From Tubulanus polymorphus (Eukaryota; Animalia; Nemertea): DNA of 64,000 nucleotides. The notes beneath the pieces are model-generated. The model had not been told where the DNA came from. It was given only the letters and a program-made list of their open reading frames with translations, and made no database searches. The stretch covers positions 13,948,050-14,012,049 of the forward strand of contig NC_134026.1 of the NCBI RefSeq assembly GCF_964204645.1, in the 5' to 3' direction. Of this stretch, positions 6,400-62,990 are shown piece by piece; positions within the stretch are counted from its first letter, which is position 1; every line of letters starts with the position of its first letter. A program made the translations under genes and the position numbers.

Positions 6400-7560
6400 T
6401 ACTGATGACACCAAAATGGCCGCAAATTGTGTCATAATTGGCTGATCAAAAAAACCTGTCTCATGTATAAAATTTCCATTTCCAAAGAATACCCATCACA
6501 AATTGCAATGAGAAATGGCAAACCAGTAGGAAGCTACAGAACTCAGAATTCGACCAAAATTGAGATTTTGGGCACGAAAAAGGTCATAGGACGGCCATCT
6601 TGATCTTGATCTTGATCCGATCGACCCAATTTTTCTTAAGCTGATGGACCCTTGGGGGAATCAAATACATACGACACATCAAGGTAATTGATCAAAGCGT
6701 CTTCAAAATTTTCCTCAAAAAGTTCAAAAATGTGTAAAAAGTGATTTTGGCAAACAACAATGGCTGCCAGTTGGCCATCTTGAATCTGACAGGGCCAGTT
6801 CTTGGGCTGAAGATGCGTCTTGGGTAGATGCATTTGTAACCCAAATACCAAGACATTACATTGAGGCGTCTTCAAAACTTCCCAAAAGTAACTGGATTCC
6901 GTCCACTAGACGTACGAACGAACGAATGGACGGACGAAAAGTCAACGGACGAAAAGTGAACGCAAGTGAGTCCCAAGTGGGCTAAAAAATCAGTCAACAA
7001 TTGCGGCCTCTATGCTGTTAATGTCATTTTTCATGTCGGCCCCCTGGTGGCAATAATTTGAGTTGAATCAACCCTATCTTAAATAGGCTTTTGTCCCAAG
7101 TGATATCCGACTTGTGTACCTAGTTTGAAATGATTCAGTCATTAATTGCAGCCTCTAGGCCGTTAACGTCATTGTTCATGTTGGCCACCTGGTGGCCATA
7201 ATTTGAATCGAATCATAATTTGAATCGAATCAACCGAATTTTAAATAAGGTTCTGGCCCAAGTGATATCCTACTTGTGTACCAAGTTTGAAATTATTCGG
7301 TCAATAATTGCGGCCTTTAGGCTGTTAACGTCGTTTTTCATGTTGGCCCCTGGTGGCCATTATTTGAATCGAATCAACCTAATTTTAAATGGGGTTCTGG
7401 CCGAAATGATAGCCTACTTGTGAACTAAGTTTGAAAACAATCGGTCAACAATTGCGGCCTCTAGGCTGTTTACGTCAATTGCGGCGGCGGCAGCGGTGTA
7501 TTCAGACAGGGGTAAATCTATATGCCCCCTCTCAACTAGAGTTGAGCTGGGGGCATAAAA
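6400..7560 (+). repeat. Two adjacent Helentron/HINE-like non-autonomous elements; the second contains ~145-bp tandem repeats
   Basis: (ACGA/ACGG)n microsatellite near 6910, then GTCCCAAGTGGGCT plus an A-run. About 3.3 units sharing ATTGCGGCCTCTAGGC and CCCTGGTGGCCAT at 6990-7480. Terminal hairpin TATGCCCCC..CTCAACTAGAGTTGAG..GGGGGCATA at 7521-7557. Confidence 0.6.
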
Positions 7561-21000: not shown

Positions 21001-23270
21001 AAAGAAAATGATGATTCGATGACAAATATTCCACTCGATGAATTTGTGTGGAGTTTGAAGCCTAGTCGATGGTCTAGATGGTTACCCGTACAAAACGGTG
21101 GTACATCCTCAACAGGAAAGTTTTCGCTGGTTCAAATTTATGCGTGGGTTAAGCGATTTGTATTGAACTGTAAAACGTGTAACTCAAGCATAAATTATGA
21201 TCGTGTATTGTCTCCTGATGAACTGAAAGCAGGGGAAGTAGAGTTAGTGAAAGTAGGTCAAAGAGAAGCTTTCAGTGAAAAAAAAGTAGCATTAGAAAAG
21301 AAGAAAAATGTATTACTCAGTAGTAAAATCGCATGGTTGAACCCATACCTGGACGGAGTTCTTCGATCGCAAACGAGAGTCGAAAGATGCAAATTATTAC
21401 CAGAAGAACAAAATTTCCGATAATTCTGTCGAAATCGAGGGACATTACAAGACTTTTGATAGTACAGGCACATGATGATACTGCACATAGTGTAGGGCCA
21501 GTACAAATTCTTAACACTCTTCGTAGAAAATATCTGATTTTACAAGGGTTGACTGCGGTTAAGAAAATCGTGAACAACTGTGCGTATTGTCTTACATGGT
21601 TACGAAAGAAGCATCTCAGTCAACAGATGGCTCCTCTGCCTAGTATTCGAGTAAACCCATCATGGAATGTGTTTTCAGACATCGGTCTGGATTTCGCGGG
21701 TCCATTTTCAGTTAAGATAGGCAGAGTTTGGGCGAAAAATTACCTCCTTTTGATGGTCAATCTGCAAGTCAGAGCGGTACATCTCGAAGCTACTGATAGC
21801 CTGGATACAGATTCGTTCCTTTGCGCATTCTCAAGATTTGCGGCAAGGCGTGGTTGGCCTAAAAGATGCTTATCAGATAACGGTGGAAGTTTTGTTTCAG
21901 GAGAATCAGAGTTGAAGGAGCTCGTTGATTGTCTTGATAGTCTTGATCAAGATAAGATATCGAATAACTTAGCAAATAACGGAGTAAACTGGATTTGGAA
22001 TCCACCTGTTAGTCCACATTTCGGTGGTGTATTTGAAACAAATACTTAAGCCACAAAGCGTTCAATAAAAGCAATAATCGGAGGTAGTGAATTAAACGAT
22101 GAGCAGTTTCGTACAGTCGTTACATTATTTGAAGGAATAATGAACTCGAGACCGTTGGTAGAGATAAATGAACCTATGTTGACACCAAATCATTTTATCA
22201 TGGGACGAGTCAGCGGAGATACTGCACCGAGTAGTGTAGACTGCATTCCGTACAATTTGCGTAACAAGTGGCGACATAGTCAAGAAGTCGTTCGTCCGTT
22301 TTGGTGTAGGTGGATCCAAGAGATTCTACCTCAGTTGAGCGCGAGAAAGAAATGGTTGTCTCCATTGCAAACGGAGATATTGTACTAGTTATCGATAAGG
22401 ATCTTCCTAGGCGGCAGTGGAAATTGGGAGAAATCAAATCGGTCTATCCAGGAAAAGATGGATTAATTCGTGTCGTTGATGTTGAAACCTCGAAAAAGGT
22501 TTATAAGCGTTCCATAGGCAACATCTGTCCTCTGGAATTTAATTCGAATAATTTCAGTTGTGCGTTGTATAAACAGTGAAACAATCATTCGGAAGGAAAA
22601 ACCGAATTTGAAGCGTAATTCATTCATTGGTCGGAATTAGAAATCAGCAAACATATATTGTCGCATGAATATGTTTGATTACTCACCGAAGAGTAATTTG
22701 TGTTAAAAGTCAATTTTGAGATTATCTAGTCTCAATAATTCGTTTTCGGTTCGCGTGTTGCGTTGAAAGTTGAACATTAGATTTGTATGACTACATTGTA
22801 TTTAGATAGTTGTTTTAAGTGTATGCACATATAGAAATAGATTTAGATATAATTCATATACAAATCTTGGTAAAATTACAAAGAATCATTCCAATTAATG
22901 TATATTACAAGTGTTAAGTTTAGTAATTTCTTCAGAAAATTTATAGAAATAGTTTAGCTCTTAAAAGTTTAATGTTAAGCTATAGTTAATTTAGATTTTG
23001 TTTAATTTAGTGGATATTGACTTAAGAATGATTAAAGAGACAGGATGTCACTTTAGAGGGAAGGATGAAGATTCGGACCTGTGACCTTATATTGAAAATT
23101 GTTACATCTGTTACATATCAAATTTTTGAGTTGATTTTTTTGTATAGCTGTTGCATAATAAAGTTGTTGATCAAATATGGAAGCAGGCGTTAGAGTCAGA
23201 TAGATTAGTTTCCCTGATTCAAGGGCCAGTTTATAGTTTATACGCCAGGACCCGAGGATAAACAAGAACA
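18061..23270 (+). mobile_element. Decayed BEL/Pao LTR retrotransposon in a LAP intron, antisense to the gene
   Basis: Fragmented gag (CFRCLRPYHRGSNC), RT (WYLPHF, YMDD), RNase H (FGDAS..AY, FWSDS, NPADVASRG) and integrase (GLDFAGPF, SDNG, GGVFE). PPT AGAGGGAAGGA. 3' LTR 23066-23270 (TG..CA); only the 3' part of the 5' LTR (18061-18179) is recognisable. Confidence 0.92.
18185..18202 (+). promoter_or_regulatory. Primer-binding site complementary to the tRNA-Phe 3' end
   Basis: TGGTGCCGAAACCCGGGA, 5 nt after the LTR end, is the reverse complement of the eukaryotic tRNA-Phe end TCCCGGGTTTCGGCACCA. Confidence 0.88.
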
Positions 23271-30675: not shown

Positions 30676-31345
30676 CCCTCCCTCCCTCCCTCCCTCCCTC
30701 CCTCCCTCCCTCGCTCTCCTAGGTACCAATATAATAAGGAAATACTAAGTAATTCCATTATTCAACGCCCCCTGGTGACCATATAGAATAACAAATGACC
30801 TTGAAACTTACCACAACCATAGACCATGTCCTGAGCTACAACTTTCCAGTTGGTTGTGGAAACAAAATATGCATAGGTACGAATATAATGTAGAAATACT
30901 AAGTTGTTGTATTGTTCAATGCCCCCTGGTGGCCATATTCAAAAACCAATGAAGTTGAAACTCACCACAATCATAGAACATGTCAGCAGCTATGATTATT
31001 TAATTGATTGTGGTAACAAAAAATGACTAGTTACCAATATAATATGGAAATACTAGGTTTTTCTAGTATTCAACACCCCCTGCTGACCATATGCAAAGCC
31101 CAATGACCTTGAGACTCACCTTAATCACAGAATATATCATGAGCTACAACTTTGCAATTGATCATCGTAACAAAGTATGCCTACGTACCAAATAATAAGG
31201 AAATACTTAGTTATTCTTCTATGACCATATAGAACAACTAATGACCTTGAAACTCACCACAATCATAGACAATGGGCTACACTTTGCAATTGATCATGGA
31301 AACAAAATATGCTTAGGTATCAATATAGGCCTAATGTGAAAAACT
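30676..31345. repeat. (CCCT)n microsatellite followed by ~4 copies of a ~150-bp satellite unit (Helentron-associated; same family as 620-732 and 6332-6380)
   Basis: Recurring TTCAACGCCCCCTGGTG(G/A)CCATAT..TGACCTTGAAACTCACC..GAGCTACAACTTT..TAGGTACCAATATAA. Confidence 0.8.
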
Positions 31346-33070: not shown

Positions 33071-34762
33071 TCAGATTAAGTAGTAAAAGTTAACGAGTAA
33101 GTAGGCTATCCGACAGGCTACCCGGCTATCCGAGAATTGATTGTAATGATAGAGCATGAATGAGAATTCTGACATTAAGTAGAATAGGTTTTTCCCTTTA
33201 TATTGATTCGCACATCCATCTGAAAAATGGACTTCGTGTTCTATTTTAACACCACGTGTTTTTAGATGATCATGTACCTTTCTTTTAAACCAATCAACGG
33301 CATATTCATCATGTTTCAAGTCATCTGATACAAAGAAAATATTTTCTTCTACAAGATCTTGGCAGTTTGGACACCTATAGACAGCAACAGTTGGATGCAG
33401 CGTTGCCTGTTTATATTGGTAATACACTGATTGTATTTCATCTTGGTATGTTGTCCTATAGTTTTGGCTGAAATCCTGCACAGTCAACACCCATCCTGGT
33501 GGTAGGTTTTCTTTCAACAATTTATACTGATCGTTTTGCCATCTGGCATTGAACAGATGTTCAGCGAATGGTACCAATTCCACCAACAATTCTTCAATGC
33601 ACTCATTCAATGATCCATTTTTCTCCATCAAAACCTTCACCTTCTTATCTTTATCATCCTTGGTTTTTTCATTACCATCCACCCATTTTTTCCATTGAAG
33701 GGGCAGCTTTCCATCCAGTTTTCTTTCATTCAAGATACTTCTTGTAAGCTTAGGACCGCACTTATTACAGGTCCGCTTAATGCATGCAGGTTCATGATAT
33801 GCCGAGGTCCTTATTTTAGGACACATACTGGTATTGACCAATTGAAACTTGTTACCAACATCAGCTGTTTTTACTCCTTTTCTGTGAGCTAAATTATTGA
33901 TGGCATCTAATTTGAACTCAATGTTGATGCAGTATTCACACAAACAGCGATTATATTTGTTCCTATCCATAGTCAGGCATTCTTTAGGACGAAGCTTCGC
34001 GAATGTTGACAATCCTACTTTAAAATCCCCGAATTCTGAATGGATCATCTTAATCGGGGCACTCAGAACACATTTCTGAATACCATTTCGGGAGACGGTT
34101 CTCTTAGTTGGCAAAATCGTCGATTTTTCTAAGTAGTACTTTCTGATCAAATTTCGTCTTTCTTCGGACAATTTGTCACATCGATAAGGTTTCTCTTCTA
34201 ATAGTGAGGCATACTTCCAGTGCTGATATGATATGTCAAGTTTGGCTCTAGCTGCGCGACTGTTTTTATACTTTCCACACACAAGTGTTACTAATGTTCT
34301 GTATTTGCTGTACTTCTTTGATACCTTATGTGCTCTTAAATTTTTCTTGATATTATTGACAATTTCTTTTTCAGTGTCAACTGTGGAACTTGATTCAGAC
34401 TTAACAGGTTCTTTTTTCGATTCATTTTGTGTTTTCTTCAATTGGTAATTCATTCTTCTTTTTTCGAGTTCACGTCGTTTCGATTGCGGAGTTTGTTTCT
34501 CTCGAAGTCTTTTTTTGGACTCCCGCCAAGATTTTCTCAAATTCTCACGAGCCATTCTTGTTGTAACTGGCCGCCCATTATTTTCTTTCAATCTTTGCCG
34601 ATAATCTTGCATTCTTAATTTGCTCTTTTCTGCGAGCTCTTTTTTTTTCTCACTGGAAATTTGTTGGCGGTAATGGCGTTTACGTTCGGCATCTTTTCGT
34701 AAAAATTCTTCATAAGCCTCCTTATCTCCTTTTCGTCTTTCTTTCTCTAAGTGGTAGTACAT
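33071..34762 (-). pseudogene. Sola2-like DDD transposase, 5' part interrupted by pogo and C-terminus missing
   Basis: CLCEYC and CIKRTCNKCG; DFSQNY..QDEIQSVYY..QATLHP; SDDLKHD; FSDGCANQYKG. The expected HGK..CDG motif with the third catalytic Asp is not present. Confidence 0.8.
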
Positions 34763-34818
34763 CTGTCTCTTCTCTTGACGGCTCTTCGGTCTTTCAGGGC
34801 TGAATTGACGAACTCTTA

Positions 34819-37800
34819 GGGTAACTCCACGTAATTTCGGAAGACCACATAAATTCGGAAGTTTTTTTTCTACAGCATCTCCACGGTCGCGGAGAGGGAA
34901 TACCTACGTGGATTAGGCCAAATTAGATATAGGGGAGGTAGGTTGGTATTTCCCGGGAATTCCACGGGATTCCGCGCCATTTTGATGACGTAGTACGCAT
35001 TTCTTTCTGGCACACGAAATCAGCGCGGCAGGGCGAAAAAGTCAGTCATGTAAGTAAATTATTGATTCGCCCCGCTTTTACGGAATTTCGTGGCAGCCGA
35101 TACGTAAACACTGCCAAGAAGTTGGCCTATTGATAGGAAGTCGATAGTTTGTTTATAAACATTCATTTTCTATCGGAATACGCTCATCGTAAAAAAAAAC
35201 GGCGATTTTCAAGAACTCGCTCGCCTACACAATTTCGGAAATCCCACACCCAGCTTTCACGGCTCTTCCACATAATTTCGGAAGTTCCGAAATTATGTTA
35301 GATTAGTTACGCGTATGTTTACACAGCTGTTATCCACATTAAATAAGACTGTGATGCTGATTAGTTAGGCCTATCAAAGAAAGAAAGTCAGGTTTAGAAC
35401 TATTTTCTCTAGGCTCATTCATTCATGAATTCAGGTAGGGCTACTACCATCCAGATTCAGTCAAAATAAGATCTTGGTCTAGGCTGTCATAACAAATTAC
35501 AGAAACAATCTATCCAGGCCTAACGAAATATTTTTTTTAAATTTTCTTTCACCTCGGTTCATAATAAAGAAGGTCATGTTTTCATTTCTTTTTTATAGAA
35601 TGCCAAAAGTGTATCGAAAGTGGACGGAAGCTCAGATGCGTGAAGCCATTGAGTCCCTCAGAAATGGCTCATCAGTTTTATCGGCGGCTAAGAATTTTGC
35701 AGTTCCAAAATCAACTCTGCACGACGGTGTTAGTGGCAAAATACCGGCAGATTCAAAACTAGGCCGGCCGACACATTTAACGGAGGCAGATGAGAAAAAG
35801 CTCGCCGATTTTGCCAAAAACAGGGCTGATTTGGGATACGGATTCTCAAAGAATAATTTCCTGAAATATGCTGGAGATCTTGCGTTGAAACGTGGAAAAC
35901 CGTTCAAGGAGGTGCTTGTCAATTAGCCAACATCATTAGGATTTGTTATTTGAAAGCATGAATTTAATAATGCAGTCTTTTCTTTTAGATTGTCCCAAGT
36001 GATCAGTTTTGGGCTGGGTTTAAATCCAGAAATCCGTCAGTAACACTGCGCAAGCCCGAAGGCACTGCTGCCATCAGGCATCAGTGTATAAATGTAAAAA
36101 AAGTGGGGATGTTTTTTGGAGCAGCAAAATTTGCATTGGCAGGACTTCAACCAATGCACATCTGGAACATGGATGAAACCGGCCTGCAGTTTTCCCATGT
36201 CCCTGGGAAAATAGTTGCTAGGTATGAAAATTGAACATTAGCTCAATGATAATTCTAGACATTGTGTCAATAGATAGGTAGGCTAATATTCCTCAGTGCA
36301 ATATGTAGATATATACCTATACATACCCGTACATTTTTTCACTATCATGCATGATTTTTAACCAATTTTTTAGTCAAAATCTCGAACTTTCAGCAAATAA
36401 ACTAACATATTGTATCAATTGTGGCATTTATTATCATAGTTTAATGGAATCAATGACCCTTTGAATCAAATACAACTGTAAATTTGTCATAAAATGCACA
36501 CCAAGTCCTCTGAAAATATAAAACAGATATCTCATAAAGGTTTGATAATAAGACTAAGAATTGTGTTTCATTCACAGAAAGGGAAGCAGATATGTGCAGG
36601 CACGCATTAGTGGCAATCGTGAAACTATTACCATCATGGCTTGTGGTAATGCGGCAGGGCAGATGCTAGCACCGAATGTAATTTTTAAAGGGAAAACGGC
36701 AGCATCACTGCAGTCTGTTGATTCCAATCGAGCACCTCCCGGAACTACAGTGTCTGTTTCTGAAAGTGGATGGACAAAGCAGGTTACAAATAATAGGCCT
36801 ATACATAACCAGGAATCAACAACTTACTTTTAATCTATCTAACTTTCCATAATTTTTATCATAATAGGGAATCGCAACACTGTGGTTTAAGAAGAGCTTT
36901 TTACCAGCAATCGGCCGAGTTCGCCCGCAAGTTTTGATATCAGATGGTCATAATAGCCACAATTTCTTAGAATTGGTGGAACTGGCTCGCGAAAATAACA
37001 TCAAATTAGTTGAACTCCCAGAGCACACATCACACTGGCTACAGCCTCTAGATCGGTAGGTCTTTTTGCCCTTATTGATTTATACAATCTAATTTAATGT
37101 TTACCGCGGCGGTATGTGTTCTTTTTTAGATCGTGTTTTAAGACATTAAAGTCCTCATGGAATCGCCTCTGTCAAAACTTCTCAAATCAAAATCCAGGTC
37201 GGATCATCAACAAGAGTTGTTTTTTTGAAATCTTTACACCTACTTGGCAGAGTATCTCGCCTGAACACTTAATTAATGGATTCAGGTCGTGCGGGATTTA
37301 TCCATTCGATCCTTCTATAATTCCACCAGAGGCATTTCTTCCATCTACAACTACAATTGCAACAGTCATTGCTGATGTGAGTTATTTTCTATCCGGGTCA
37401 TATGATCTCACCAAGTTGTTATTTGAATACAATGATGTGTATTGGTATTCTAGATCGCCGATCCTACACCATGTAGTGATGTTCCGTTGTCGGAATCAAA
37501 TAAGGTATGACTTTTCACACTAAAACATACAAAACGTAAATATAGACAAAATCATTTAAAATATCTTGCAATGACCTGTAACCTTAATTACTATCTAGAA
37601 TCAATCAACGAGTGAAAATCCATCTCAGGTGTGAAACAAAAAACTTTATTAATTATAGGTTCATTGTTTGTTAATTAGTATTATTATTTTACCTGTGTTG
37701 GAATAACAGATTCAGATTGGTTCTATTGTGTTCTTTGTTGTTACTTACACCTAATGATTTTACATTTCAGTTTTCAAGTGCTGACGAACAATCAACAAAT

Positions 37801-39875: not shown

Positions 39876-39978
39876 TAATTTATATCGTACGGATCTCTTA
39901 TTTTCTCTGAAAAAGTTAAGACACATTGAGTCAATGAGATGAAAAGAGATATGGTTCCATTGCAGCATATATTATATC

Positions 39979-40622
39979 CTAGTTGTCTACCAAGTTTGGA
40001 AAAAATTGGCCATCAATTGCGGCCTCTAGGCCGTTAACGTCCATTTTCATATCGGCCCCCCTGGTGGCCATAATTTGAATCGAAGCGACCCAATTTTAAA
40101 TAGGGTTCTGCCCCATGTGATACCCTAGTTGTCTACCAAGTTTGAAAAAAATCGGCCATGAATTGCGGCCTCTAGACCGTTAACGTCCATTTTCATATCG
40201 GCCCCCTGGTGGCCATAATTTGAATCGAATCGACCCAATTTTAAATAGGGTTCTGCCCCATGTGATACCCTAGTTGTCTACCAAGTTTGAAAAAAATGGT
40301 CAACAATTGCGGCCTCTAGGCCGTTAACGTCCATTTTCATATCGGCCCAATGGTGGCCATAATTTGAATCGAAGCGACCCAATTTTAAATAGGGTTCTGC
40401 CCCATGTGATACCCTAGTTGTCTACCAAGTTTGAAAAAAATCGGCCATCAATTGCGGCCTCTAGGCCGTTAACGTCCATTTTCATGTCGGCCCCCCTGGT
40501 GGCCATAATTTGAATCGAATCGACCCAATTTTAAATAGGGTTCTGCCCCAGGTGATACCCTAGTTGTCTACCAAGTTTGAAAAAAATCGGCCATCAATTG
40601 CGGCCTCTAGGCCGTTAACGTC
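39979..40622. repeat. Homogeneous tandem array, 144-146-bp unit, ~4.4 copies
   Basis: CTAGTTGTCTACCAAG recurs at 39979, 40125, 40270, 40414 and 40560; same family as 6990-7480. Confidence 0.95.
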
Positions 40623-43600
40623 ACTTGCTTCTATACCGCAAATCAGTAAATTGGTTCGTTACAGATTTGGTTCGTTACAGATTATTCTTTATAAGTTCAG
40701 GATGCACGAAGACACAAAAATTTAGCGTCTTTGTTACATCCTTGCTATTGTTGCCATAAAATCACCTAAAAAAATATCTAGGTCTGTTGTGACGAGTATA
40801 ATGCCATGCAGATTCTCATTTATGGTCTAAATCAAAGGTCTAAATAGCATTCTCTGGGCGAATCTTATAGTTTCCAACAAGGACGTAACAGTGACTCTAA
40901 ATTTTGAAAAGGAATTTCTTCATTATTAGTGTCTTTGTTACATCCAATGCATTGAGAATTAGGCCTAGGCAATGCAAATATGGAAATATGTTCCAAATTG
41001 AAATTGAGCAACTCATTAGTGATTTTCTTCAAATCAAAGGCAGTAACCTGTAAAAATACCTTCCAGTTGTAAGCAGAAGTTATTTTTACAACTGGACGTA
41101 AATAGGACACGACCCGAAATAACAGTAAAAGCAGCACCGTCTCATTTCAAGCGCTTGTTGCTGACGCTAGTTGACGTGAAATAACTCAATTTATTTGCCC
41201 CCTGCTACTTTATGAGAGAAAGTTTCATGGTACGAGTCATTTCTAGGTATGCAGGCAATAATAAATATTCATTTCAATACTAAACGAACCATACATACAA
41301 TTTGTCAAGGACGTAACAAAAGTTTTTTTTATACGTACTTTCCATCGACCGCGACATCGTCTGCCATCTTGAAACAAACTTAGTTTGGGGTGGCGCTACT
41401 GTACGGATACATTGTAGAGGCTAATCTTGCGCGGTGTAAGGTATCGTCTGCCGGCTTATAGCTCCATACGTAAACAACTTTTTTATTTCGGGACGCACGT
41501 TTTTTGACACCAAAATAATTCTTCAACGATTTATATGCAGAATAAAGAAAGATCCTCTGAACAATGCAAATATTATCTACGATTGATGATTCTGGAAGGT
41601 CAAGCTTATTTTAGCGGCAAAATTTTAAGTACTATCCGGAATCGTTCTTATTTATAGGAATTTTCCTGGACGTAACAAATAGGACTCCATATGTTACGTC
41701 CGGATCAAATTTGTTTCGCCATCAATTCCACATTTTATTATTTTAACAATTGTACTACATACGTCTTAATAAAAAGCAAAAGTTATAGCAATTTTCAATG
41801 GAGTAAAGATATCAGTCTTGTGTGCAACCCAAAGTATGAAAAAATATCGATGATTTTATCTGCTAAAAAAAGACACCAAAAATTTTTGAAATGAAATTAG
41901 GACAAACTACTTTTAAAAAGTGTTCATTTAATTGTATTCAGTAGTCATCACTTCAAATTCTTGCTGTTGTATGGCCATTCCTCGCACCTTCTCTTGAGAT
42001 ATTTTACAAGAGTGATCCCACAATATAAATGGGTTGAATTTAGAATTGTTCAGGACGTAACGAAATTTTAGGACATCATATTTTGACTCATATATATATA
42101 TAGTTTTATAAACGCCAACTTATCGGGACATGCGTGATTCTGAGACTCGGAGTATTGGGTCCTCTCTGTCGTATTGGGTCATTTTCTATTTATTGGGACT
42201 AGGACCCAATAATTTTGGCCCCAATTATTTAGCTGACGTGGTTAGCACCCATACATTATTATATCGTATGTGGTAGAAATGCATATTGGGTCGTTGAGTA
42301 GCGACACAACACCCCTCTGGTGGTGAACTCCGGAAACGGTATGTATGATTCGACCAATCAGATTTGATATATATCTATCGACCAATCAGATTGATTCGTA
42401 TGACTCGACCAATCAGATTCAAGGATCACATCAACGTGGCGGCCATTATCGTTGTTTCGATTCGGAATTATGTTTAGCGTTTATGCACGGCTTGTTGGGT
42501 AAGTACTATTGATAAATGAAATCTTTTTGCTCGTATCAACTGAGTTAGTTACCTAATCGTCGGTGGTAAGCTTTTTATAATCGGATGGGCTTATACCAAC
42601 GTGTGGTTTGTGAAAATATCCGATCGTGAAACTAAACCACTGACAGGTTAGGCTATCAACTAGACTAACAATAGACTCATTGAATGTTCTTTGAATAATT
42701 CAATTCAGTAGGCCAATTCTATGTCACTGAACAGTTGCCGAACAATACACCCATGGACCGTAGGTAGGCCTAAACAAACCGGACATATTCGGGGCGACTT
42801 TTACTCTTGATTTCGTTCGTTTGGCATGATATTTTAATCCAGGCTTTTAGGCCTACCGCAGGTGAAGTGTAATCAGGTCGGCACCGGTAGTCCTACACAG
42901 TCACAGCCAATTCATTTTGGGGGTGCGAAGAGATAGGCCTAGGTCTATGGTGGAACTTTTAGGCTTATTGGATGGCATAACTAAGGATTCACATCAGAGT
43001 GCTCCGTAGTTAGGAGTGCTCCCTAAGCCGGCTTTTGGCAGTAGTTAGCACAACTGTGGAGTCGGAGAAACCAATATGGCATCTCATTCAAAGAGCGGCT
43101 GTAATTCAAGCCCAAACTATTGACATTTTGACCAAAAGAAAGTAAGTTTTTAGGCCAAAAGTTACTGATTTTTGTTTCCCAAAAAATTTTTTTTTCAATA
43201 TTTTCCAACTTTTTCAGTATGGGCCATTTTCATCCCTGATCATGTGTATATTTTAACTACTACTCAATTGCTTTAGGCCTATAAAGCAATTCGATAAGCC
43301 TACAAGTCGTGTGGAAGATTCCAATCAATCCGCAGTTGAACCACATGGAGAGTCTTATGACAGATATGAGTCAGCTTGCCGCAACCGATGGTAAATCAGT
43401 TTAGTTATTTCATATCTTTTAAGCCCACTTGGAACTGGTCTAGTACCTAGCCGTTGGTTGTAGGGAACCGGTATTCGGTAACAACGACTGGTATTCAGAC
43501 TAACTTGGGACTTAAGACCTTAAGTTGATTTTATTGGGAAATATAAGACCAAGATCAAGTAACGTGTCGTATACGGCTGAGTGTTTATGTGGTAGTGTAA

Positions 43601-43854
43601 CTTGTACAGTCGGGTATTGGATGGTGCTGCCATCTTGGGTCCGGGTGGTAGTCCGCAGGCAGAGGGAGTCGTCTTCCAGAGTTGTTTAGCCAGTCGAAAA
43701 CTGGTTGTTCGGGGAGACGGTTGTAATAAAACTACTGGCATATTCTATCAGTCTATGCTTTTTATTTTAATCTCTAGTTCTCAGGAGCAGGAGTTGGAGT
43801 TTTCCTAAGCGGAGTGTGCTGGCGTGTCCACCGTACACGTCCGCTGAAGTAGTC

Positions 43855-44830
43855 GCTACCGTTCGTTCCTCAACGAGAGGACCGACATCCCTCGATATCG
43901 ATCGTGCGAGAAGCTCGCTAAGGGGGCGCTGCTGTTCGACCCTCAACGAGAGGATCGACATCGATCGTGCGAGAAGCTCGCTAAGGGGCGCTGCTGTTCG
44001 ACCCTCAACGAGAGGATCGACATCACTCGACATCGGTCGTGCGAGAAGCTCGCTAAGGTTGCGCTGCTGTTCGACCCTCAACGAGAGGACCGACATTGCT
44101 CCAAATTAATCGTGCGAGAAGCTCGCTAAGGGGGCGCTGCTGTTTGACCCTCAACGAGAGGACCGACATCGCTCGACATCGGTCGTGCGAGAAGCTCGCT
44201 AAGTGCGCGCTACTGTTCGTTCCTCAACGAGAGGACCCACATCGCTCGACATCGATCGTGCGAGAAGCTCGCTAAGGGGGCGCTGCGGTTCGACCCTCAA
44301 CGAGAGGATCGACATCGATCGTGCGAGAAGCTCGCTAAGGGGCGCTGCTGTGCGACCCTCAACGAGAGGACCGACATCGCTCGACATCCGTCGTGCGAGA
44401 AGCTCGCTAAGGGCGCGCTGCTGTTCGTTCCTCAACGGGAGGACCGACGTTGCTCCAAATTGATCGTGCGAGAAGCTCGCTAAGGAGACGCTGCTGTTCG
44501 ATCCTCAACGGGAGGACCAACATCGATCGTGTGAAAGGCTCGCTAAAGAGGCGCCGCTGTTCGATCCTCAACGGGAGGACCGTTACGATCGTGCGAGAAG
44601 CTCGCTAAGGGTGCGCTGCTGTTCGACCCTCAACGAGAGGACCGACGTTGCTCCAAATTGATCGTGCGAGAAGCTCGCTAAGGGGGCGCTGCTGTTTGAC
44701 CCTCAACGAGAGGACCGACGTTGCTCCAAATTGATCGTGCGAGAAGCTCGCTAAGGGGGCGCTGCTGTTTGACCCTCAACGAGAGGACCGACGTTGCTCC
44801 AAATTGATTGTGCGAGAAGCTCGCTAAGGA
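43855..44830. repeat. GC-rich minisatellite, 14 copies, units of 62-63 or 72-73 bp, each with two hairpins
   Basis: GCGAGAAGCTCGC at 43906, 43969, 44041, 44114, 44187, 44260, 44323, 44395, 44468, 44531 (variant), 44593, 44666, 44739 and 44812. Confidence 0.95.
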
Positions 44831-44958
44831 GACGCACATAGACAAATATACATACATACACATATACGTATACATCCACATACACACATATACACACACA
44901 TACATGTGTATCTATATAGTCCACTCAACCCAGAGTAAAGCGGTATCTGTGTCCGTGT

Positions 44959-48105: not shown

Positions 48106-48862
48106 CACAGGGGTTTGGCGATGGGCTTGGATTTTATTTCCGGGTTGTTGATAATCTCGCGAGAATGGCGCTAAATATGAACTACGAATAAATTCAAAAT
48201 ATCACGGAAATACCTTGTGTTTATATTGTTTATTTATCCGCTATAAAGTTTCGATAAACAATTGGTCGTTAAGAATCATTATCAGACGGTCGTCACACTA
48301 CTATATAAAAGAACAAGGGATGAAACGCAGTTCAATTCATGCCAGCCAGAAAGTTGGGACAGTCACGTGACATTCTGATGATGTCATCACATTTAAAACT
48401 TTAACATGAAAAGTTAACATATTCACAGACCGGTATCAATTGTCAGATTATGATTCATATGAAATTAATAATTTATAAAGAATTGTGATCAAATATATAA
48501 TTCATAGACAAAAAATGCATTTGAATGTGAATTAATCTCAAATATTTTTCGTATCATAGTTTCCATCTTAGATGCTTCGGGTTTGCATTCATTCAAATAA
48601 GAAGCGCGACTGTCACGTGACTGGCTGGCACAACTCTGAACTGCGTTTCATCCCTTGTTATTTTACATAGTAGCGTGACGACCGTCTGATAATGATCCTT
48701 AACGACCAATTGTTTATCGGAACTTAATGGCGGATAAATAAACAATATAAACACAAGGTATTTCTATATTTTGAATTTATTTTCAGTTCATATTTAGCGC
48801 CATTCTCGCGAGATTATCAACAACCCGGAAATAAAATCCAAGCCCATCGCCAAACCCCTGTG
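48106..48862. mobile_element. P-element-like fold-back MITE with ~260-bp TIRs and 8-bp TSD
   Basis: CACAGGGGTTTGGCGATGGGC...GCCCATCGCCAAACCCCTGTG; GTTTCATT at 48098-48105 and 48863-48870. Confidence 0.88.
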
Positions 48863-49629
48863 GTTTCATTAACAACATTTAAGTGTGCTCCTTGTCACTG
48901 ACAATATTTTGAGTGTTTTCGACTTCGTTACCCCGTACTTGAGGTTGTTTTCCCCAATCGCTATCATTTCTTACTATGAAAAATTGAATCAAGCTGTGAC
49001 GAGGCGTCCGTCACTTAGATTTCATCTATTACATATCATTAGGGCCTACCGTATTAGACGATGCTGTTATAGAATACCACTTGCAAATTGAAAAAGGCTT
49101 CGGATGCTCTAATCCAGATTTTACTTTAATAAGCCTCGTTGACAGAACATTTCGAAACGTTCCATGCCTAACCGCCGTCGCCAGCGACGCCATCATCATC
49201 GTAATTCCAACTGATAAGAAAAGGATGGCTCCGATAGCGGTACTGGTAGAGTCGAGTCGCGTGAAGACTGGTAGCCGGTCTGAATGCCGGTTTGCTAGCG
49301 TATCTATTTAACACCCGTATTGCTCGGGTTAGTTTTACCACCAACGGATGGCGCTGTATGTAAATTTCACATAAATCAACGACTTTCGGCTATTAGGGGT
49401 ACTTAAGACCACTTGAAAACATCATAGTCAATTACGGTAGTAGTGAAAATAAAAAGAATTAGATACAGTAAGCACTATAGCACCCAGACCAGAGACATTT
49501 TATTCACACTAAGGACTATTAGTTAAACACTGATCTTCATTTCCATTAATTAATGATCTGTTGAATTGATTAGTAATACAGTCTTTCGGTGTTCGAGATA
49601 AAATGCCCGCAAAATAAGAACCTAACGAA

Positions 49630-53470: not shown

Positions 53471-54399
53471 TAGTTGGCACAGTCACGTGACATTCTGATG
53501 ATGTCATCACATTTAAAACTTTGACATGAAAAGTTAACATATTCACAGACCGATATCAATTGTCAGATTATGATTCATATGAAATTAATAACTAATAAAG
53601 AATAATTTATGATCAAATATATAATTCATAGACAAAAAATGCATTTGAATGTATAAGTTATTCTCAAATATTTTTCGTATCATAGTTTCCATCTTAGATG
53701 CTTCAGGTTTGCATTCTGTCAAATAAGAAGCGTTAAGTCACGTGACTGTCTCAACTTCCGTTTCATCCCTTGTGATTTTATATAGAGCGTCACGACCGTC
53801 TGATAATGATCCTTAACGACCAATCTTTTATCGGAACTTTATAGCGGATAAATAAACAATATTGTGAAGATCAACCGATACGTAAGATTCATGTTCCGTG
53901 GCAAAAAATCATTAGGACATTTATTTTCAGACGTCACAAACACGGATGCACGATTAACTACAAACAAATAGAAAATTACCATAAATAAATTTGTATAATT
54001 ATTGACATAAGAGAATATCTTTATATTAGCAATTTACCGTAATATTTGGCTGTCTAAACCTTCAATTTAAATCTTCACCCTTTACTCAAATACAGCAACA
54101 CAACCTTACAGGTCTAAATCCATATAACAAGTGACCAAAAATCTCAATATCTGATATATCTATTGAACTATACAAATTCTCAGGCTATAGAATTACCATG
54201 ACCAGAAACCATGAAATAACAACCATAGAAATATATCAAATACAGTATACAGAATACAATAAAGCAGAATTTCAGGAATTATTCCTTACATACCCGCCCC
54301 CTAATTGAGAAACTCAATTAACATAATAACGATAATGTCCAAAAACAAAAACCTATTCTTGACTGTTAAGCACGATGAATCTAAAGTAACAAAGAGAAT

Positions 54400-57300
54400 C
54401 TAAAGTTTAATTTCATTTTCGACGAGAACGCACAGCTTATCAATAGGACGCTGAAAAATAGTACCCTTTGCCGTTCTTACTGAAGCCGAACGAACAAAAC
54501 CTTTTCGATCACGATGGACTTCTGAAATACGCGATAGAGTCCACGAGTTACGGATGGATCCATCGACGATGAAGACAATATCTCCAACACATAAGTTTCG
54601 TTTCGCAGTATTCCATTTACTGCGAATCTGCAGGAGATGCAAATACTCAGATGTCCACCGCTTCCAGAAAACATTCGCAATATGCTGAACTTGCCTCCAA
54701 CGACGTCGAGTATATAAATCGGATTTGTCAAATAGTCCGGGAGGAAAAGTAGATCCTTTGTGTAACAGTAATAGGTGATTCGGGGTTAAAGGTTGTAGAT
54801 CATTTGGATCATTTGATAACGTAGATATAGGTCGACTATTCAAAATCGACTCGACCTCACAGAACAATGTGGATAAATTATCATCATTTAGATTTGAACC
54901 TTGTTCTTTCATCAATGAAAACAAGATTTTACGGACGGAACGAATGAGGCGTTCCCATACACCTCCAAAGTGACTCGCACCTGGAGGATTAAAAATCCAC
55001 TTGACATTGTTCTGCAATAAGAAATCATGGATTTGGTCCTTATTCCAACAATCAATATTCCTCTGTAGCTCTCGATTGGTTCCAACAAAATTGGTTCCAT
55101 TATCAGATCGAATTAGACGTACATTTCCACGTCGTGCGATAAATCTGCGATAAGCGTTAATACAACCAGATGTGTCCAGAGTAGGCGAGACCTCCAAATG
55201 AACAGCCCTAGTTACCAGGCAGGTGAAGATAACACCATAACGCTTCTCAATACAACGACCCCGTTTTACCTCACACGGGCCAAAGTAATCTGTTCCCGTA
55301 TTAGTAAATGGCGGATTGTCAGGCAACAATCGCTCTTGAGGAAGATCTGCCATCTTCTGATTACAAACTTGACCACGGTACTTTTTACATAAAACACATT
55401 TCCTCGTTATATCCTTAACCAGTTGATTAGCCCTTAAAATCCAGTAACGCTCGCGCAATCGGGCTAACATTGAGCTTTTACCAAGATGCCCGACCGATGC
55501 ATGAACACTCAACAATATCAATTTCGACACATGAGAACATCTAGGCAATACAACCGGATGTCGTTGTTCATATTCAAGAAAATATGCTTTTCTCAGCCGA
55601 CCACCAACACGGATTATATCGTCTTCTAAAACAGGATCTAGTTGATACAATTGACTACCTCTGGGAATCAACTTTCTATCATTTGAACGGAGAATCACTA
55701 ATTCTTTCCTGAAATAATCTTCCTGTACGCATTTAATAATTGCCAGCTCGGCTCTTTGAAGATCATCAGTACTCAGCTTATTGGTATTCAATCGTTCAGC
55801 ATTAGCGTTTTCACCAGAAAGACGTTTACTTACTCTCAACAGCAAACAATCTTTCAACCTTAAAAACCATGCAACGGCACGTTTGAGTCTATGCCAGCTT
55901 GAGTAGTAGTTAAATAGATGTTTTATAGGATCATCATCAGAAACCGAAAGTACAGCATTAGAAGTCTTCTTCAACTCAACATCATCATCACTCAGGGACC
56001 GTAAAACACCGTGTTGACATGGCCACTCAGATATTGGCTTCCAAAGGAACTCCGGGCCGTGTAACCATACTACTGAGTTTTGTTCTATACAATCCAGTGA
56101 CAAACCCCTAGACGCATAATCTGCTGGGTTCAGATGACCATCTACAAACTTCCACTGCTGAATAGTTGAACCATCTCTAATTAAATTCACTCTATTCGCT
56201 ACGAAAGTGTGATAACGAGCAGTCTCATTAGCAATATATTTCAGTACTGCAGTGCTGTCGCTCCAAAAATATACATTTGAAACACTGTACTCCAATTCTT
56301 CCAACATCATCTTATTCATCTTAATCAGTAATGCAGCTGCAGCTAATTCCATCCTAGGAACTGTCATTTTCTTCAAAGGAGCTACTCTGCTTTTAGCAAA
56401 TATAAAACAACAATGTACTTGACCATTTTCATCTTCAAGGCGCAAATATGATACAGTGCCGTACCCAACATCACTTGCGTCCGCAAAATGATGCAGCTGA
56501 CAAGATTTCGAAGAACCATGAAACCATTGAGGTTTGAAGCATCGTGATATAGCCAACTCTTCAAGGCCAGGTAAACCTTCCTGCCATTTCTCCCAAACTT
56601 TCAGATATTTTTCAGGAATTTCTTCATCCCATGAAAGCTTCTCTCTACATAAGTCCTGTAGCAGAATTTTCACCGGCAGTACATATGGGGCAGCAATACC
56701 CAAAGGATCATAGACTGTGCTGACCGTTGACAAAATCCCTCTGCGTGTATTTGGTTGATGCTTAGAAGTTATCCTGAAGCCATAAGTGTCGTTCTCTATA
56801 TTCCAGTGGACGCCCAATGCTCTTTCTGTTGGCGAACCAAAATCTAGACTCTTCAACTCCTTGCAAGATTTAGCAAGCTCTTCTTCTGGCAAACTTTCAA
56901 TTACAGAACGATCATTACTTACAAACTTGGTGAGTCGAAAGCCCCCTTCTTTACACAGAGATATCAGTTTCATCACAAATTCTGGATTTTGACCATCTTG
57001 TACACGAGACTTCAAACAGTCATCAACATAGAAGTTTTTCAAGACTGTATTGGTAACTTCTACTTCATACTTGCTAACGTTGTCAGTGGCTGTCCGGCGT
57101 AAAGCCCAGTTAGAACAACTCGGGGATGAGATTGCCCCAAATAAGTGAACTAACATACGGAATGGTATGGCTTTCTTGTTCAAATCACCATCCGGCCACC
57201 ATAAGAATCTCAAGCAGTCTTTATCATCCGGTGCAACCCTTACTCTATAAAACATAGATTCTATATCTGCCATTATTGCGGTTCTTTCTTGTCTGAAACG

Positions 57301-60250
57301 TATCAACACACCAACCAAAGTGTTAGTCAAATCTGGCCCTTGTAACAATTGAGAATTCAAAGACACTCCACCATAAAGTGCAGGACAATCGAAAACGACA
57401 CGGACTTTTTCAGGTTTTTTGGGGTGATATACCCCGTGATGAGGTATATACCATATACGACCATTTTCCAAACGCAAATCTTCATTAGGAACCTGTTCCG
57501 CGTAGCCTTTAGCCAATATATTGTCCATAAAGACATTATAGTCATGTCGAAACTTGTCATTTTTCAACAGCTTATTTTTCAGATTTGACAGTCGTTTCTC
57601 AGCATGCCGAATATTATTGGGAAACCTCAAATTCTTGTCACGCCATGGCATTGGTAATTGGTACTGTCCATTCTCTATTTTTACATTGGACTCCATCATC
57701 GTCATAAATTTATGATCTTCAACTGACCATTGTTTTTTATCTTCAGCAATTCGCTCAGGAAAGTCAAAATCTATAGCTTCCTGAACCAATTGATCAAGAG
57801 AACTCACAGCACAGCTGATTTTGTCAACAGTGTCGGTAACTATATCATCGTCTTCATCACCAGATCTAAAAACATTCCAGGCGACCCATCCTAGTCTAGT
57901 TCTGGAAGCATGTGGTGATCCAGCAGGGCCTGTCCGTAACTCGAACGGTGTGTATGCGTAACTCGAACGGTGTGTATGCATCCGCAATATTATTGCCAAT
58001 CAACAGACCAATTTCTGCATCTATCTTAGGCAATTTAACATCACTCATGTGCGACCATTTACGGATGTCATCTTCTGTTGGCACATGCAGTGGTGAAACT
58101 GGCATCTGCTCTGTAGTATAAACAGCAGGCATGAAAACTACGTCTTCAGTTTCCAAACCTCTGACTTCTAAACAATGAACAATCTGAGTATCAAGCATTG
58201 TAGACCTCGCCATAGTGTCGAGATTCAATCTCACTTTCTTGCCAATACCGCCGATCTGCTTCAACAACGACGAAGTACAAAAAGAAATACTACTTCCAGG
58301 ATCTAGGAAGGCGAAAGTTATCACTTCTGGAATTCTTCCCTTCACTTTCACTCTAACTGGAAGTATAGCCATAGTACAGAATCCATCTGTCTTCTTTTCA
58401 CCATCATTTATGGCGCCACAGGGAATTCCATCTTTTACATCTGATATCGTGTTCTGATTCTGATCTCTTCGTGTCATAATTGCTGGGTTTTCAGGAAGTG
58501 ACCTAGAATCATCATGCAGTACACTTGGATGCAACCGTTTACATATATCACAGTTCATCTTCAATCTACAATTTCTCTTCTGATGTCCAGATCGGAGACA
58601 ACCCCAACAGAGGCCTTTTCTTTTAAGAAAAGATATTTTTTCTTCAAAGACCACATTAGACAGGTCTTTACAATCATTTAATACATGATCGCCAGCGCAG
58701 TATATACATGGTTTCTTCAATGCAAGATTAAATGAGTTTTGTTGATTCGTATGAGAAATGCTCCCCGTCTGTGCAGCAACAGTATTTCGGCTACCCTGTG
58801 ATATTCGCAGAGACTTTTTGTCTTTCTTCTGATCTAACGCAGCAGCCATCATATCTTTACCAAAAATCGGGTCGTTCACCTTTTTTGACTCCTTCCGTAC
58901 AAAACTCACTAAGGTATTCAGATTTATAGTATTACCAGCAGAGCGCGTTGTCTGTACTATAGTTCTCCATCTATCTTGAAGCGACCATGGTAATTTACCC
59001 ACCAACTTCCTCAGATTGTCAGGGTACTCAAGAAGTTTCAATGCATCTATATCTTTCACAGCATTCTCTACTTCTAACAAGAAAATCGAGAATTCGTCCA
59101 AGCCTTTACTGTTGTCTGACTTAATCATAGGCCAGTTTATAGCTTTCTTTAACAAAGCATTTGCAATGATCGCCGAGTCACCGTATCGTTCTTCAAACTC
59201 TGTAAGAACAGCTTGATATCCTCGTGTTGAACCAATATAGCTAAGACCTGTTACAATTCTATTTGCCTCACCAATTGTGAATTGTTCGAGAAAGTTTAGC
59301 CGTTCATCGTCGTCGTCCGTATTCTCAGCAATTCTAGAATTGAACTGACGGATGAAACGCCGGTATTCAAGAGGATTTCCGTCAAATTTTTTTATTTCAA
59401 CAAACGGCTTTTTGATATGCTTCACAATCGAATCTAGACCTCTTGGTTCCGCATTAACAACGCTTCCGACATCAGATGGCATGAACGTAGTAGCACGTGG
59501 ATTCAAAGGTCTGTAAGAACCATCATTTTCAGCTATTTCATTTTTCAGAAATGTAGGAAATGGTTCAGGAAGGAACGATTTATCATCAATCATTGACTTA
59601 TTCGATTCCCTATCTAAAAGTGTTTCAATCACGTTACTCTTCGCTTCACTAACTTCCAGCTGCGTATTCAAATCTAAAAACTCTTCTTGTTGTTTCAGCC
59701 GCAATTTCTCAAGCTCAAGAGTCTGTTTTTTCTTCATACTATTCAGCAAGACATTAAGCTCTGCTTTTCTCTGTTCTTCTTTCAAACGAGCAGATATTAT
59801 GGAGCTACCCTTACTCAAATCAGAGCGTACTGAACTAGCTTTTGATCTAACAGACTTCCTGGATTCAGCAGACCGTTTCGATCTTGCGAGTACCGACAAA
59901 GTATTTTCAGCCGCCATTTTGACTTGGTTGAAGTATGTATTCATCTCGTTACTTTCGACCGACAAATTCTCTTTTTCTTTAGAACTGAGTAGAAGACAGT
60001 ACTCATCTGAAACTTGCAAGAAATTCTCGTACGTCTTGATCCAGTCTTTGTATGAATTCTGGACAACATCATAGTCACTGTGCTCAATAACTGACAGAAG
60101 AGTACTAGACAGGTTGTTCAGCTTCTTCAGGAGACTTTTTCTATCTTTCAGTTTATTCTCCTTCTGGTATTCGACACCTTTTTCGGTCAGCGACCTATTT
60201 CTTGTTTCTTTTGGCCTAACATCTTGTTGGCCAGTTGCTGCTGTAGCCAT
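54400..60250 (-). CDS. BEL/Pao gag-pol polyprotein (gag with three Cys/His knuckles, protease, RT, RNase H, integrase), ~1942 aa, broken by one 22-bp duplication
   Basis: FDGNPLEY, CWGCLRSGHQKRNC, FLDPGSS, FYVDD, HHFADAS, NPADYASRG, GTDYFGP, SDNGTNF, GGVWER. The two track ORFs join once the duplicate at 57935-57978 is collapsed. Confidence 0.95.
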
Positions 60251-60361
60251 TATTACGTTAATAAAATGTGAAGATCAACCGATACGTAAGATTCATGTTC
60301 CGTGGCAAAAAATCATTAGGACATTTATTTTCAGACGTCACAAACACGGATGCACGATTAA

Positions 60362-60441
60362 CTACAAACAAATAGAAAATTATCATAAATAAATTTGTAT
60401 AATTATTGACATAAGAGAATATCTTTATATTAGCAATTTAC
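60362..60441 (-). other. Predicted 80-nt spliceosomal intron within the BEL 5' LTR (copy in the 3' LTR at 53958-54037)
   Basis: Minus strand ACG|GTAAAT...AT-rich...TTTTCTATTTGTTTGTAG|TTAATC; lies between a TATA-like ATTTAAAT (60469-60476) and a downstream AATAAA. Confidence 0.65.
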
Positions 60442-62990
60442 CGTAATATTTGGCTGTCTAAACCTTCAATTTAAATCTTCACCCTTTACTCAAATACAGC
60501 AACACAACCTTACAGGTCTAAATCCATATAACAAGTGACCAAAAATCTCAATATCTGATATATCTATTGAACTATACAAATTCTCAGGCTATAGAATTAC
60601 CATGACCAGAAACCATGAAATAACAACCATAGAAATATATCAAATACAGTATACAGAATACAATAAAGCAGAATTTCAGGAATTATTCCTTACAAATATA
60701 AACACAAGGTATTTCCGTGATATTTTGAATTTATTCGCAGTTCATATTTAGCGCCATTCTCGCGAGATTATCAATAACCCGGAAATTAAATCCAAGCCCA
60801 TCGCCAAACCCCTGTGGCAACATGCATAAAAAATGATACTATCAGACGTATTTTTTATTCTGAAGAAATCTTGTTTAAAAGTATTAGTTAAATATTAATC
60901 TACCCTGTGTTAAAAGTATCAGATGGAGAGGCCCGTGTACTTTTTCACAAAAATAGCATTTGGACCTTTCAAGGAGATCGGTGTGCAGCAAAGATATACG
61001 CGTTACCTCCGCTATGAGATTTTCAGGCAGGTGGGGAATTCGGGTCACCCGGGTCTATAGTCATGAACACTGTACTATACCATCCAGACATCCATCTAAA
61101 AGAGACCATGCACGTAGGTACCAGGTACATCGTAGCCAGGCAGCAGGCGAATAATTTGTGTCACCTGCAATGTACTGTAACCATAGAAATTTAGCACTGA
61201 GCTATGCCTTAACCAACCAACAGCTGATAGAGTTCATCAGAGCATCCAAACTTTAAATCTCCAGAAATCTATCTACTGTTTTATATGTAGTGGATGCCAT
61301 GTGTCCCTCTAATCGCCTTCATCAACACAAACATTTAACACATGTGATGATTTAGTTAGTTACCTAATCGTTGGTGGTAAGCTTTTTATAATCGGATGGG
61401 CTTATACCAACGTTAGGGATGACAAGGACCAAAACACGGTTGAAAAAAGTAACACTTCAAAAATATACTTTCTATTCACTTCAGTTCACAATGAATGGCT
61501 TAATTCACAAACTAACACAGGTACATTTCGAAATAATCCAATTCTATGTATGTTTCGAATGATTAATCAACATTATTTTGAGAAATTAATTAATTTCTCC
61601 ACAAATTTCGCCATTGGCCGCCATTTCTGTGTATTGCATACATGTGGCATGATAGACAAGGTGACCTACAAGGATTTATTTAAAACTTCCATGACGAAAC
61701 GACAATTTTTATTTTTGATGGTTTTCAAACATGTATTTCAAATCTTCGTGCTTTTGTAGCGTTTCTCTCCTGGGTAGCGTATCTTTATGTGTTTATGTAT
61801 ATAATAAATGAAATAGGCGTTTGCTACTAGGGTTCGCCCTGAGACAATATAATCGGGTTATACGAAAATTTTGAGGGAAGTAATTCCTCCTCAGGGAAAA
61901 GATATTAGTTCTCGTCGAAATTATAATCAAATAAAAATATTCAGTCTTCTCATTCCATGATCAGGGCTCGGCGTCCTCGTAGCGACTACCTGGCCAGGAT
62001 TTCGCACGGGTTCGAACGTAGTTCTCCCAACATCTACCGTTCTCTCACGTATATGACACTTTGTCATGACTACCCACGGATAAAGGCCGTCAGTCGATAA
62101 AAAGATTGAGGGTTCGAATCCTCGATTGATGGTCTTCGTCTAACTACTGCCGATACGTCCCCGATCGAACTGGTCCTCTCGTTAAGACGAATGATAATAA
62201 TTGGCACTGAGACAGAAAATAGCGGTGGAACTCCTCTCCTCGTTCAGAAAAGAAGAAAATGTAAGACTTGTATAAAATTTATCATGTCAAGAGTTGAACT
62301 CCTGAATTTAATCATTTCTCCAGTTCATAAAGTTTACACCTCGGACGCGTCTCGGTACGGTCTCGCGTCGGGAACGTCAAATTATACGAAGTCACGAAAT
62401 TACTTTAAAGTCACCTTACTCGGGCGTAGGCCTACGGTGAGAGATGAATAGAAAATTATAGCGACGATCTCAAATCATTATTCAATCGCGATCAAATGTA
62501 GAAATATATACATTTTATATACAATCGAAGCGAAATCGCTCAACCGAGAGCGAATCAATACAGTCGTAGTTGAAAATGATGTGACGATCGATACGCCCGG
62601 CAAATGATTTTACGTATGTACAAAAGTCTGCTCGACTAAACAAAACAAAATTGATTATGACTGTCCATCGTAGTGACGCTCTCGGTCGGTTGGTTTCGCT
62701 AGGATAAGAGACCGGAAAAATCAAACTCGGTCGAAATCAAACTGGGCCGGAATCAAACTCGGCCAGACAAAATCAAACTTGGTCAAGAAACGCCTCTCTA
62801 TCCTGCCTTTGGATATGGTCGTCTTGTCCAACCCGAAGGAAGAGATATATTCACTTTTTGATCGTCTGGCCAAGTTTGATGTTGACCAAGTTTGATTTTG
62901 TCTGGCCGAGTTTGATTTGTTTGGAAGTAAACAGCCACAAATTATTAATATTACAAATAACGCTGGTGTTATAAATATCTATCATAAGAT

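Follow-up and report, generated by a model that had tools for sequence, protein, structure and literature searches.

The 64-kb window analysed here (the whole stretch of Tubulanus polymorphus DNA, from contig NC_134026.1) carries a BEL/Pao long terminal repeat (LTR) retrotransposon on its minus strand, spanning 60694-53863. Our subject is the 5' end of this element, where a candidate primer-binding site (PBS) complements a predicted spliced junction of the element's own LTR. Because the two LTRs (5' LTR, TG...CA, 60267..60694; 3' LTR, 53863..54290; both 428 bp and on the minus strand) differ by a single substitution, and the element is flanked by a 5-bp target-site duplication (ATATT, minus strand; left copy 60695..60699, right copy 53862-53858), we judge the insertion to be young. 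Both element flanks (53,472-53,862 and 60,695-60,817) match parts of an inverted-repeat copy at 48,106-48,863 that resembles a miniature inverted-repeat transposable element, and the retrotransposon appears to have inserted into a copy of this family; the stretch 60,675-60,888 also shows very high contig depth.

The interior, read on the same minus strand, has the organization of a BEL/Pao element (Belpaoviridae). A gag-protease frame (57896..60250, with its ATG at 60250) encodes DUF1759, Cys-His boxes and a DPGS protease motif, and is followed by reverse transcriptase (YVDD), RNase H (DAS; Pfam Peptidase_A17), integrase and DUF5641 at 54400..57999 and by a polypurine tract at 54291..54304. 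The coding frame of this copy is broken near 57,900-58,000. Four Pfam domains score above the cut-off: PF03564 (DUF1759), PF05380 (Peptidase_A17), PF17921 (integrase zinc finger) and PF18701 (DUF5641). The order of motifs (DPGS, YVDD, DAS, integrase) is that of BEL, and the LTRs, target-site duplication, polypurine tract, Cys-His boxes, succession of protease, reverse transcriptase, RNase H and integrase, and Pao-type domains are all those of the family. What the element lacks is the 18-nt PBS for a host tRNA, and its protein-based assignment holds regardless. The Pol part is 100% identical to an NCBI protein from the ribbon worm T. polymorphus; next in line, at 46-52%, are proteins of molluscs, another nemertean, fish, amphioxus, a crinoid and a hemichordate. 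This host range fits the marine BEL/Pao clades Sinbad, Sparrow, Surcouf and Suzu, a compatibility that is no test of membership.

Downstream of the 5' LTR end (...CTTCACA) there are only a 4-nt spacer, TTTT (60266-60263), and a 12-mer (60262-60251) that directly abuts the gag ATG, and no TGG occurs within 9 nt of the LTR end. The original prediction had called attention to this missing tRNA-type site and to GT-AG signals in the LTR, and all of its coordinates (LTR end, spacer, 12-mer, intron, the AGCCA and TTTAAA motifs) were verified. The predicted spliceosomal intron is 80 nt long (60362..60441, minus strand; repeated in the 3' LTR at 54037-53958), with a GTAAAT donor, a pyrimidine tract and a TTTGTAG acceptor end. 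Removing it in silico joins 60442 to 60361, and the last 7 nt of exon 1 (60442..60448) together with the first 5 nt of exon 2 (60357..60361, with a predicted cut after 60357) then form an exact 12-nt complement of 60262-60251. The runner-up among the 201 GT-AG pairs of the LTR that lie at least 40 nt apart gives 7 nt, as does the unspliced LTR. Across a small internal loop, AGCCA (60451..60455) adds an outer helix with 60249-60245, as had also been proposed.

Taken alone, the match in the window is suggestive, not decisive: when the 25 nt behind the LTR are shuffled, 9 of 1500 sequences reach at least 12 nt with any GT-AG pair (p ~0.006). For the 12-mer and the splice dinucleotides, no variant is listed in the family's contigs from three sequencing runs. 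Across the element and its flanks the contigs of these runs contain no joint of 60361 to 60442, which is no evidence either way on splicing. In one run, contigs of related subfamilies match exon 2 and U3 at 60,335-60,499 and diverge across the donor/exon-1 region.

Covariation and splice signals among relatives

Related elements provide the main evidence. With an alignment of 43 polyproteins, 539 loci were confirmed in metagenome contigs, of which the best 80 were taken; genome bins contributed 12 more. We analysed the 41 of these 92 loci with a gag start and upstream DNA and added L088; the other 50 were left out, judged to be without a 5' end. Four of the loci (L005, L021, L026 and L055) are copies of another family, so that 42 loci represent 38 families; those placed on the Pol tree have Pol identities of 42-53% to the window element. 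A spliced-junction match is present in 21 of the 38: an exact complement of 10-16 nt, 0-5 nt behind the LTR end, with introns of 71-625 nt. Seven more families are intron-free, and here a complement of 11-12 nt is contiguous in the LTR. A search of viral contigs gave 87 pattern matches, none of which was confirmed. Several of the relatives (L081, L083 and L085-L090) lie in contigs filed as bacterial genome bins, likely host DNA carried into those bins.

Loose hairpin searches yield chance matches of 10-15 nt, with poor splice sites and away from LTR ends; we therefore ran an anchored swap test, in which every LTR was compared with every PBS by an identical search (any GT and any AG, or a contiguous match). 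The test covered 27 sets, namely the window and 26 matching families, without L088 and L016. Own pairs matched over 10-16 nt in 27/27 cases (most often 11 nt, in 15 of the sets), and swapped pairs reached at least 10 nt in 38 of 702. A clean subset comprises the nine sets whose LTR end was fixed by comparing both LTR copies (for L056, whose 3' copy is cut short where the contig ends, the LTR end was fixed from a sister contig); all nine score 10-15 nt, and one of 200000 permutations reaches their summed score. The covariation that had been named as a check of the idea is thus found, far above swapped controls, between the site behind the LTR and the spliced junction. Among the window and the 21 junction families (22 families in all, to which the following counts refer), 21 of the 22 primer-site 11-mers are distinct and differ on average at 5.9 of 11 positions, and the 8+8 junction of any family was not found contiguous in any other locus. 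For example, the window element and its tree neighbour L081 have a common exon-2 start and different exon 1 sequences, and each PBS tracks its own exon 1. In the retroviral mechanism the primer is copied into plus-strand DNA in each cycle, which would keep PBS and junction in step.

The splice sites themselves were searched as any GT with any AG and picked by pairing alone, and the segments found in this way have the consensus donor, pyrimidine tract and YAG of GT-AG introns. Donors read GTRAG in 17/22 families (GTAAGT in 13), against 57 of the 1423 GTs of the same LTRs; for L001 and L040 a canonical donor was preferred within 1 nt of the best score, and the count is 15/22 when this tie rule is dropped. 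Acceptors are YAG in 21/22 (background 403/751), and the pyrimidine fraction of the tract is 0.72 versus 0.54. One locus, L060, holds a joint at the DNA level. Its two LTR copies align in exon 2 and diverge exactly at the predicted junction, where an acceptor tract stands in the 5' copy, while the 3' LTR has exon 1 joined to give an 11-nt complement of the PBS. Such a precise trace is what a spliced RNA would leave once reverse-transcribed, although the contig is possibly a chimera of two subfamilies and the donor lies off it.

On the Pol tree (FastTree and a quick IQ-TREE) the intron-free families need at least six changes, forced by the starred branches, and an intron is present in both of the deepest rows. 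We infer intron loss rather than gain, given a root that rests on one long outgroup, the second BEL/Pao element of the window. Where intron-free contigs show no host flanks, some of them could have been assembled from RNA. The LTRs of L029, L040 and L050, aligned three ways, diverge too far for an intron loss to be placed; the sole support there is a common exon-2 start.

The geometry of the helix is equally regular. In all 22 families its 3' end faces U5 and 0-5 nt separate it from the LTR end; in 28/28 elements no TGG occurs within 9 nt of the LTR end. The helix ends 4-7 nt into exon 2, whose length ranges from 30 to 241 nt, and the primer ends in A-C or A-T in 22/22 families (background 388/2593), followed by C or G in 20/22. 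This A[CT] signature is as expected of a defined cut site, conserved apart from pairing. Moreover, the terminal base could be paired by unspliced RNA in only one of the 22. The outer helix is enriched across families (-6.1 kcal/mol for own versus -4.2 for swapped pairs; 21 of 100000 permutations) and ranks among the top five of 22 in only 11 of them. The distance to the gag start varies widely between families. On these comparisons, the match between junction and PBS is a real, clade-wide feature, explained neither by chance nor by a tRNA.

One part of the original prediction did not find support, namely that the primer is the extreme 5' end of the RNA, behind TTTAAA (60470..60475, minus strand) as a promoter. 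A TATAWA motif stands within 60 nt of the donor in 1/22 families and 103-277 nt upstream in five, and is absent in 16, including the window. The primer may instead be an internal segment of a longer capped RNA, unlike that of Tf1, which consists of the first 11 nt of the transcript; the outer helix reaches beyond the core pairing on its 5' side. The fold of the window element favours a short exon 1. Further downstream, AATAAA (60324..60329, minus strand) is a likely poly(A) signal that would place R between the cut and ~60305. Exon 2 contains AATAAA or ATTAAA in 15/22 families, a count given without a chance control. In L014 and L038 the predicted primer itself contains a poly(A)-type hexamer, and the 30-nt exon 2 of L038 would make R and U5 very short.

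A proposed splice-completed primer and its alternatives

Very probably, the spliced junction is the primer of these elements, acting either in cis or in trans. We further consider it probable that it acts in cis, that is, that the element self-primes with its own RNA, completed by splicing, and retains an unspliced copy of the intron in the 3' LTR. RNA splicing, cleavage and priming are steps that we infer from sequence, and they would follow one another in this way. The cap-near 5' copy of the LTR intron would be spliced, and the joint would pair with the site that follows the LTR at 0-5 nt, forming a 10-16 bp helix beside a small loop and a short outer helix. Cleavage where the helix ends, 4-7 nt inside exon 2 and behind A-C or A-U, would then release a 3' OH directed into U5; the nuclease is probably the element's own RNase H, in the manner of Tf1. 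With the cut inside exon 2, strong-stop DNA would copy only exon 2 and never the junction before jumping to the 3' end of the RNA. There, exon 1 and the intron would be copied from the 3' LTR copy, which would be unspliced in most productive molecules, and both new LTRs would therefore regain the intron. If the 3' copy were spliced as well, the product would be an intron-free LTR with a contiguous primer, a state found in eight families.

Several observations weigh against this scheme. Ten of the 38 families have no match of at least 10 nt at a plausible LTR end; the LTR is cut by the contig end in seven of these, two have no clear LTR before gag, and L010 is complete, with a whole LTR and a 9-nt contiguous match found by eye that resembles its sister L016. 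In the swap test, the LTR end was placed after the match had been seen in 18 of the 27 sets. When the leader is folded with an exon 1 of 16, 30, 60 or 100 nt, the helix exceeds a probability of 0.5 in 15/22, 14/22, 11/21 and 12/21 families, respectively; for the window it reaches 0.93 and 0.86 with 16 and 30 nt and 0.00 with 60 or 100 nt. The unspliced RNA of the window keeps the 5' half and the outer helix (-14.2 versus -18.5 kcal/mol when spliced), and its donor, GTAAAT, is weaker than most of the relatives' donors. The model would also require that a single RNA have its two identical LTR copies spliced unequally, and a poly(A) signal lies just downstream of the 3' acceptor, a placement that usually favours splicing. 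On the other side, splicing is efficient for introns close to the cap, and a donor that follows a 6-kb exon may be recognized poorly, which might allow such an inequality.

The same covariation would result if the junction primed in trans, with a fully unspliced genomic RNA primed by a spliced one, which could be either a co-packaged spliced genome or a short transcript of the LTR that stops at its poly(A) signal. Such an arrangement would explain intron retention directly, with no need for unequal splicing, and it is in keeping with the poly(A) hexamers in exon 2 and with the several families in which cis folding fails. Even so, the primer end is linked to the PBS by a short loop, which in most families folds in cis, and the intron-free families retain the same geometry, which is the plain cis layout of Tf1; we regard trans priming as unlikely. 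Less likely still is that the pairing serves some other purpose (packaging, translation control, or the guiding or blocking of splicing or polyadenylation) and that the true primer is a different one. In the window the outer helix does overlap part of the gag start codon, and priming is here a deduction from the DNA. Against this, the position and orientation of the helix are constant in every family while the gag start lies at very different distances, none of the 28 elements has a tRNA-type site, and the A[CT] signature at the helix end is fixed.

Self-priming by unspliced RNA, with the intron-like stretch no longer spliced, concerns the window element in particular. The original prediction had cautioned that unspliced RNA already pairs at 10 of 12 positions. 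This stands for the window, where the unspliced RNA keeps 7 + 5 pairs and three of the last five positions next to a GTAAAT donor; it does not stand in general, since only 36 of the 133 pairs in the 3' half, counted over the 22 families, come from the intron start. In the unspliced RNA the terminal base would stay unpaired, and both exon halves pair in 0/13 unspliced folds. It is the spliced form that is matched perfectly, in a copy whose LTRs are nearly identical, and the 12-mer and splice dinucleotides are free of variants among the family's contigs in the three runs. We find this explanation very doubtful. To a host tRNA half or other small RNA, bound copia-style with the junction match incidental, we give almost no credence. 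Half-tRNA priming does exist in Ty1/copia lineages, according to the available part of PMC6317226, but the 22 families have 21 distinct sites, each matching its own LTR and rarely another's.

Returning to the splice-completed cis primer, we think it fairly likely, if somewhat less so than cis priming as such, that host splicing is an obligatory licensing step for DNA synthesis in a widespread animal BEL/Pao lineage, that the 3' intron is left in for inheritance, and that the arrangement is ancestral and has, on at least six occasions, been reduced to a plain primer of the Tf1 kind. This raises the puzzle of how one transcript would splice one of two identical LTR introns, and of why the intron survives beside intron-free versions. 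As guesses, the intron might aid expression or export, or might keep the 3' copy from competing for the PBS.

Other features of the window

A second, decayed BEL/Pao element lies at 18,061-23,270 on the plus strand, with short LTRs and a TGG-type PBS, which we take to be a tRNA-Phe site, 5 nt behind the LTR; the spacer is the one that had been proposed. Its Pol is 35% identical to that of the first element, and its best spliced match is 6 nt, making it a negative control. ARAGORN finds no tRNA genes in the 64-kb window. An open frame of 610 codons at 33,071-34,903 (minus strand) has Cys/His motifs and no Pfam match and is possibly, as a guess, a transposase-like remnant. Tandem arrays occupy 6,952-7,482, 30,719-31,327, 39,969-40,628 and 43,847-44,844, with units of ~145, 154 and 73-280 bp. 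Among the relatives, the sisters L007, L009 and L010 share a conserved leader motif that starts with TGGCCA ~130 nt before gag and, in L009 and L010, lies away from the inferred LTR end.

Comparison with known systems

Foamy viruses are tRNA-primed retroviruses. Their LTR resembles that of the window element in having a splice signal in both copies that is used unequally (the major splice donor in R), and differs in that the foamy donor controls poly(A) choice and no whole intron builds a primer there, as far as the available part of the source goes (PMC3694450). Within its own family, the element has the LTRs, polypurine tract, gag Cys-His boxes, enzyme order and Pao-type Pfam domains of the Belpaoviridae as set out by the ICTV, the international body for virus taxonomy. 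That description gives the family tRNA-primed replication, with an 18-nt PBS that serves tRNA-Arg or tRNA-Gly of the host, and calls replication poorly understood (PMC8742986); the clade of the window element has no such 18-nt site.

The original prediction knew of no splicing-linked self-priming in BEL/Pao, and we too found no report of BEL/Pao self-priming or of a splice-built primer in the literature searched; a note on either could still stand in sources beyond this scope, namely Repbase Reports, the pages of GyDB, supplements of the papers and most subscription journals. The available text of four papers on BEL/Pao or related elements (PMC554778, PMC3118150, PMC6238403 and PMC12440569) does not contain the term 'PBS', and that of four others (PMC8220671, PMC3286476, PMC13524379 and PMC12451622) holds nothing on self-priming or a splice-built primer. 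If the scheme is true, a third superfamily of LTR elements joins those that self-prime, and a primer that the spliceosome makes links RNA processing to cDNA synthesis, a link that we did not find in the same literature. In practical terms, PBS finders miss the whole clade, and the match between junction and PBS offers a rule for annotating its LTR ends and introns.

Self-priming has been described, in the available parts of the sources, for Tf1, Tf2, Tj1, Tcn1 and the TAR copia lineage (PMC7175516, PMC4600332, PMC6317226, PMC3601003). In the TAR lineage (Houba, Osr-1) it is predicted, as here, from complementarity between LTR and PBS; TAR, unlike the window element, belongs to plant Ty1/copia, and the part of that source available mentions no intron (PMC6317226). 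The closest likeness is to Tf1 and Tf2 of Schizosaccharomyces pombe, Tj1, the Tf1/sushi group and Tcn1, which likewise have no tRNA site, have a PBS that complements the RNA of their own 5' LTR over ~11 bp and need a cut at the end of the duplex; in Tf1 it is RNase H that cuts the 11-bp self-duplex (PMC7175516 and PMC4600332, from their available text). The window element shares one trait, a PBS complementary to its own 5' LTR RNA with the 3' end facing U5, only after in-silico splicing, and its domains are those of BEL/Pao, a superfamily different from the Ty3/gypsy chromoviruses to which the Tf1/sushi group belongs. By analogy, then, it is an element that would work like Tf1 but stands outside the Tf1/sushi group.

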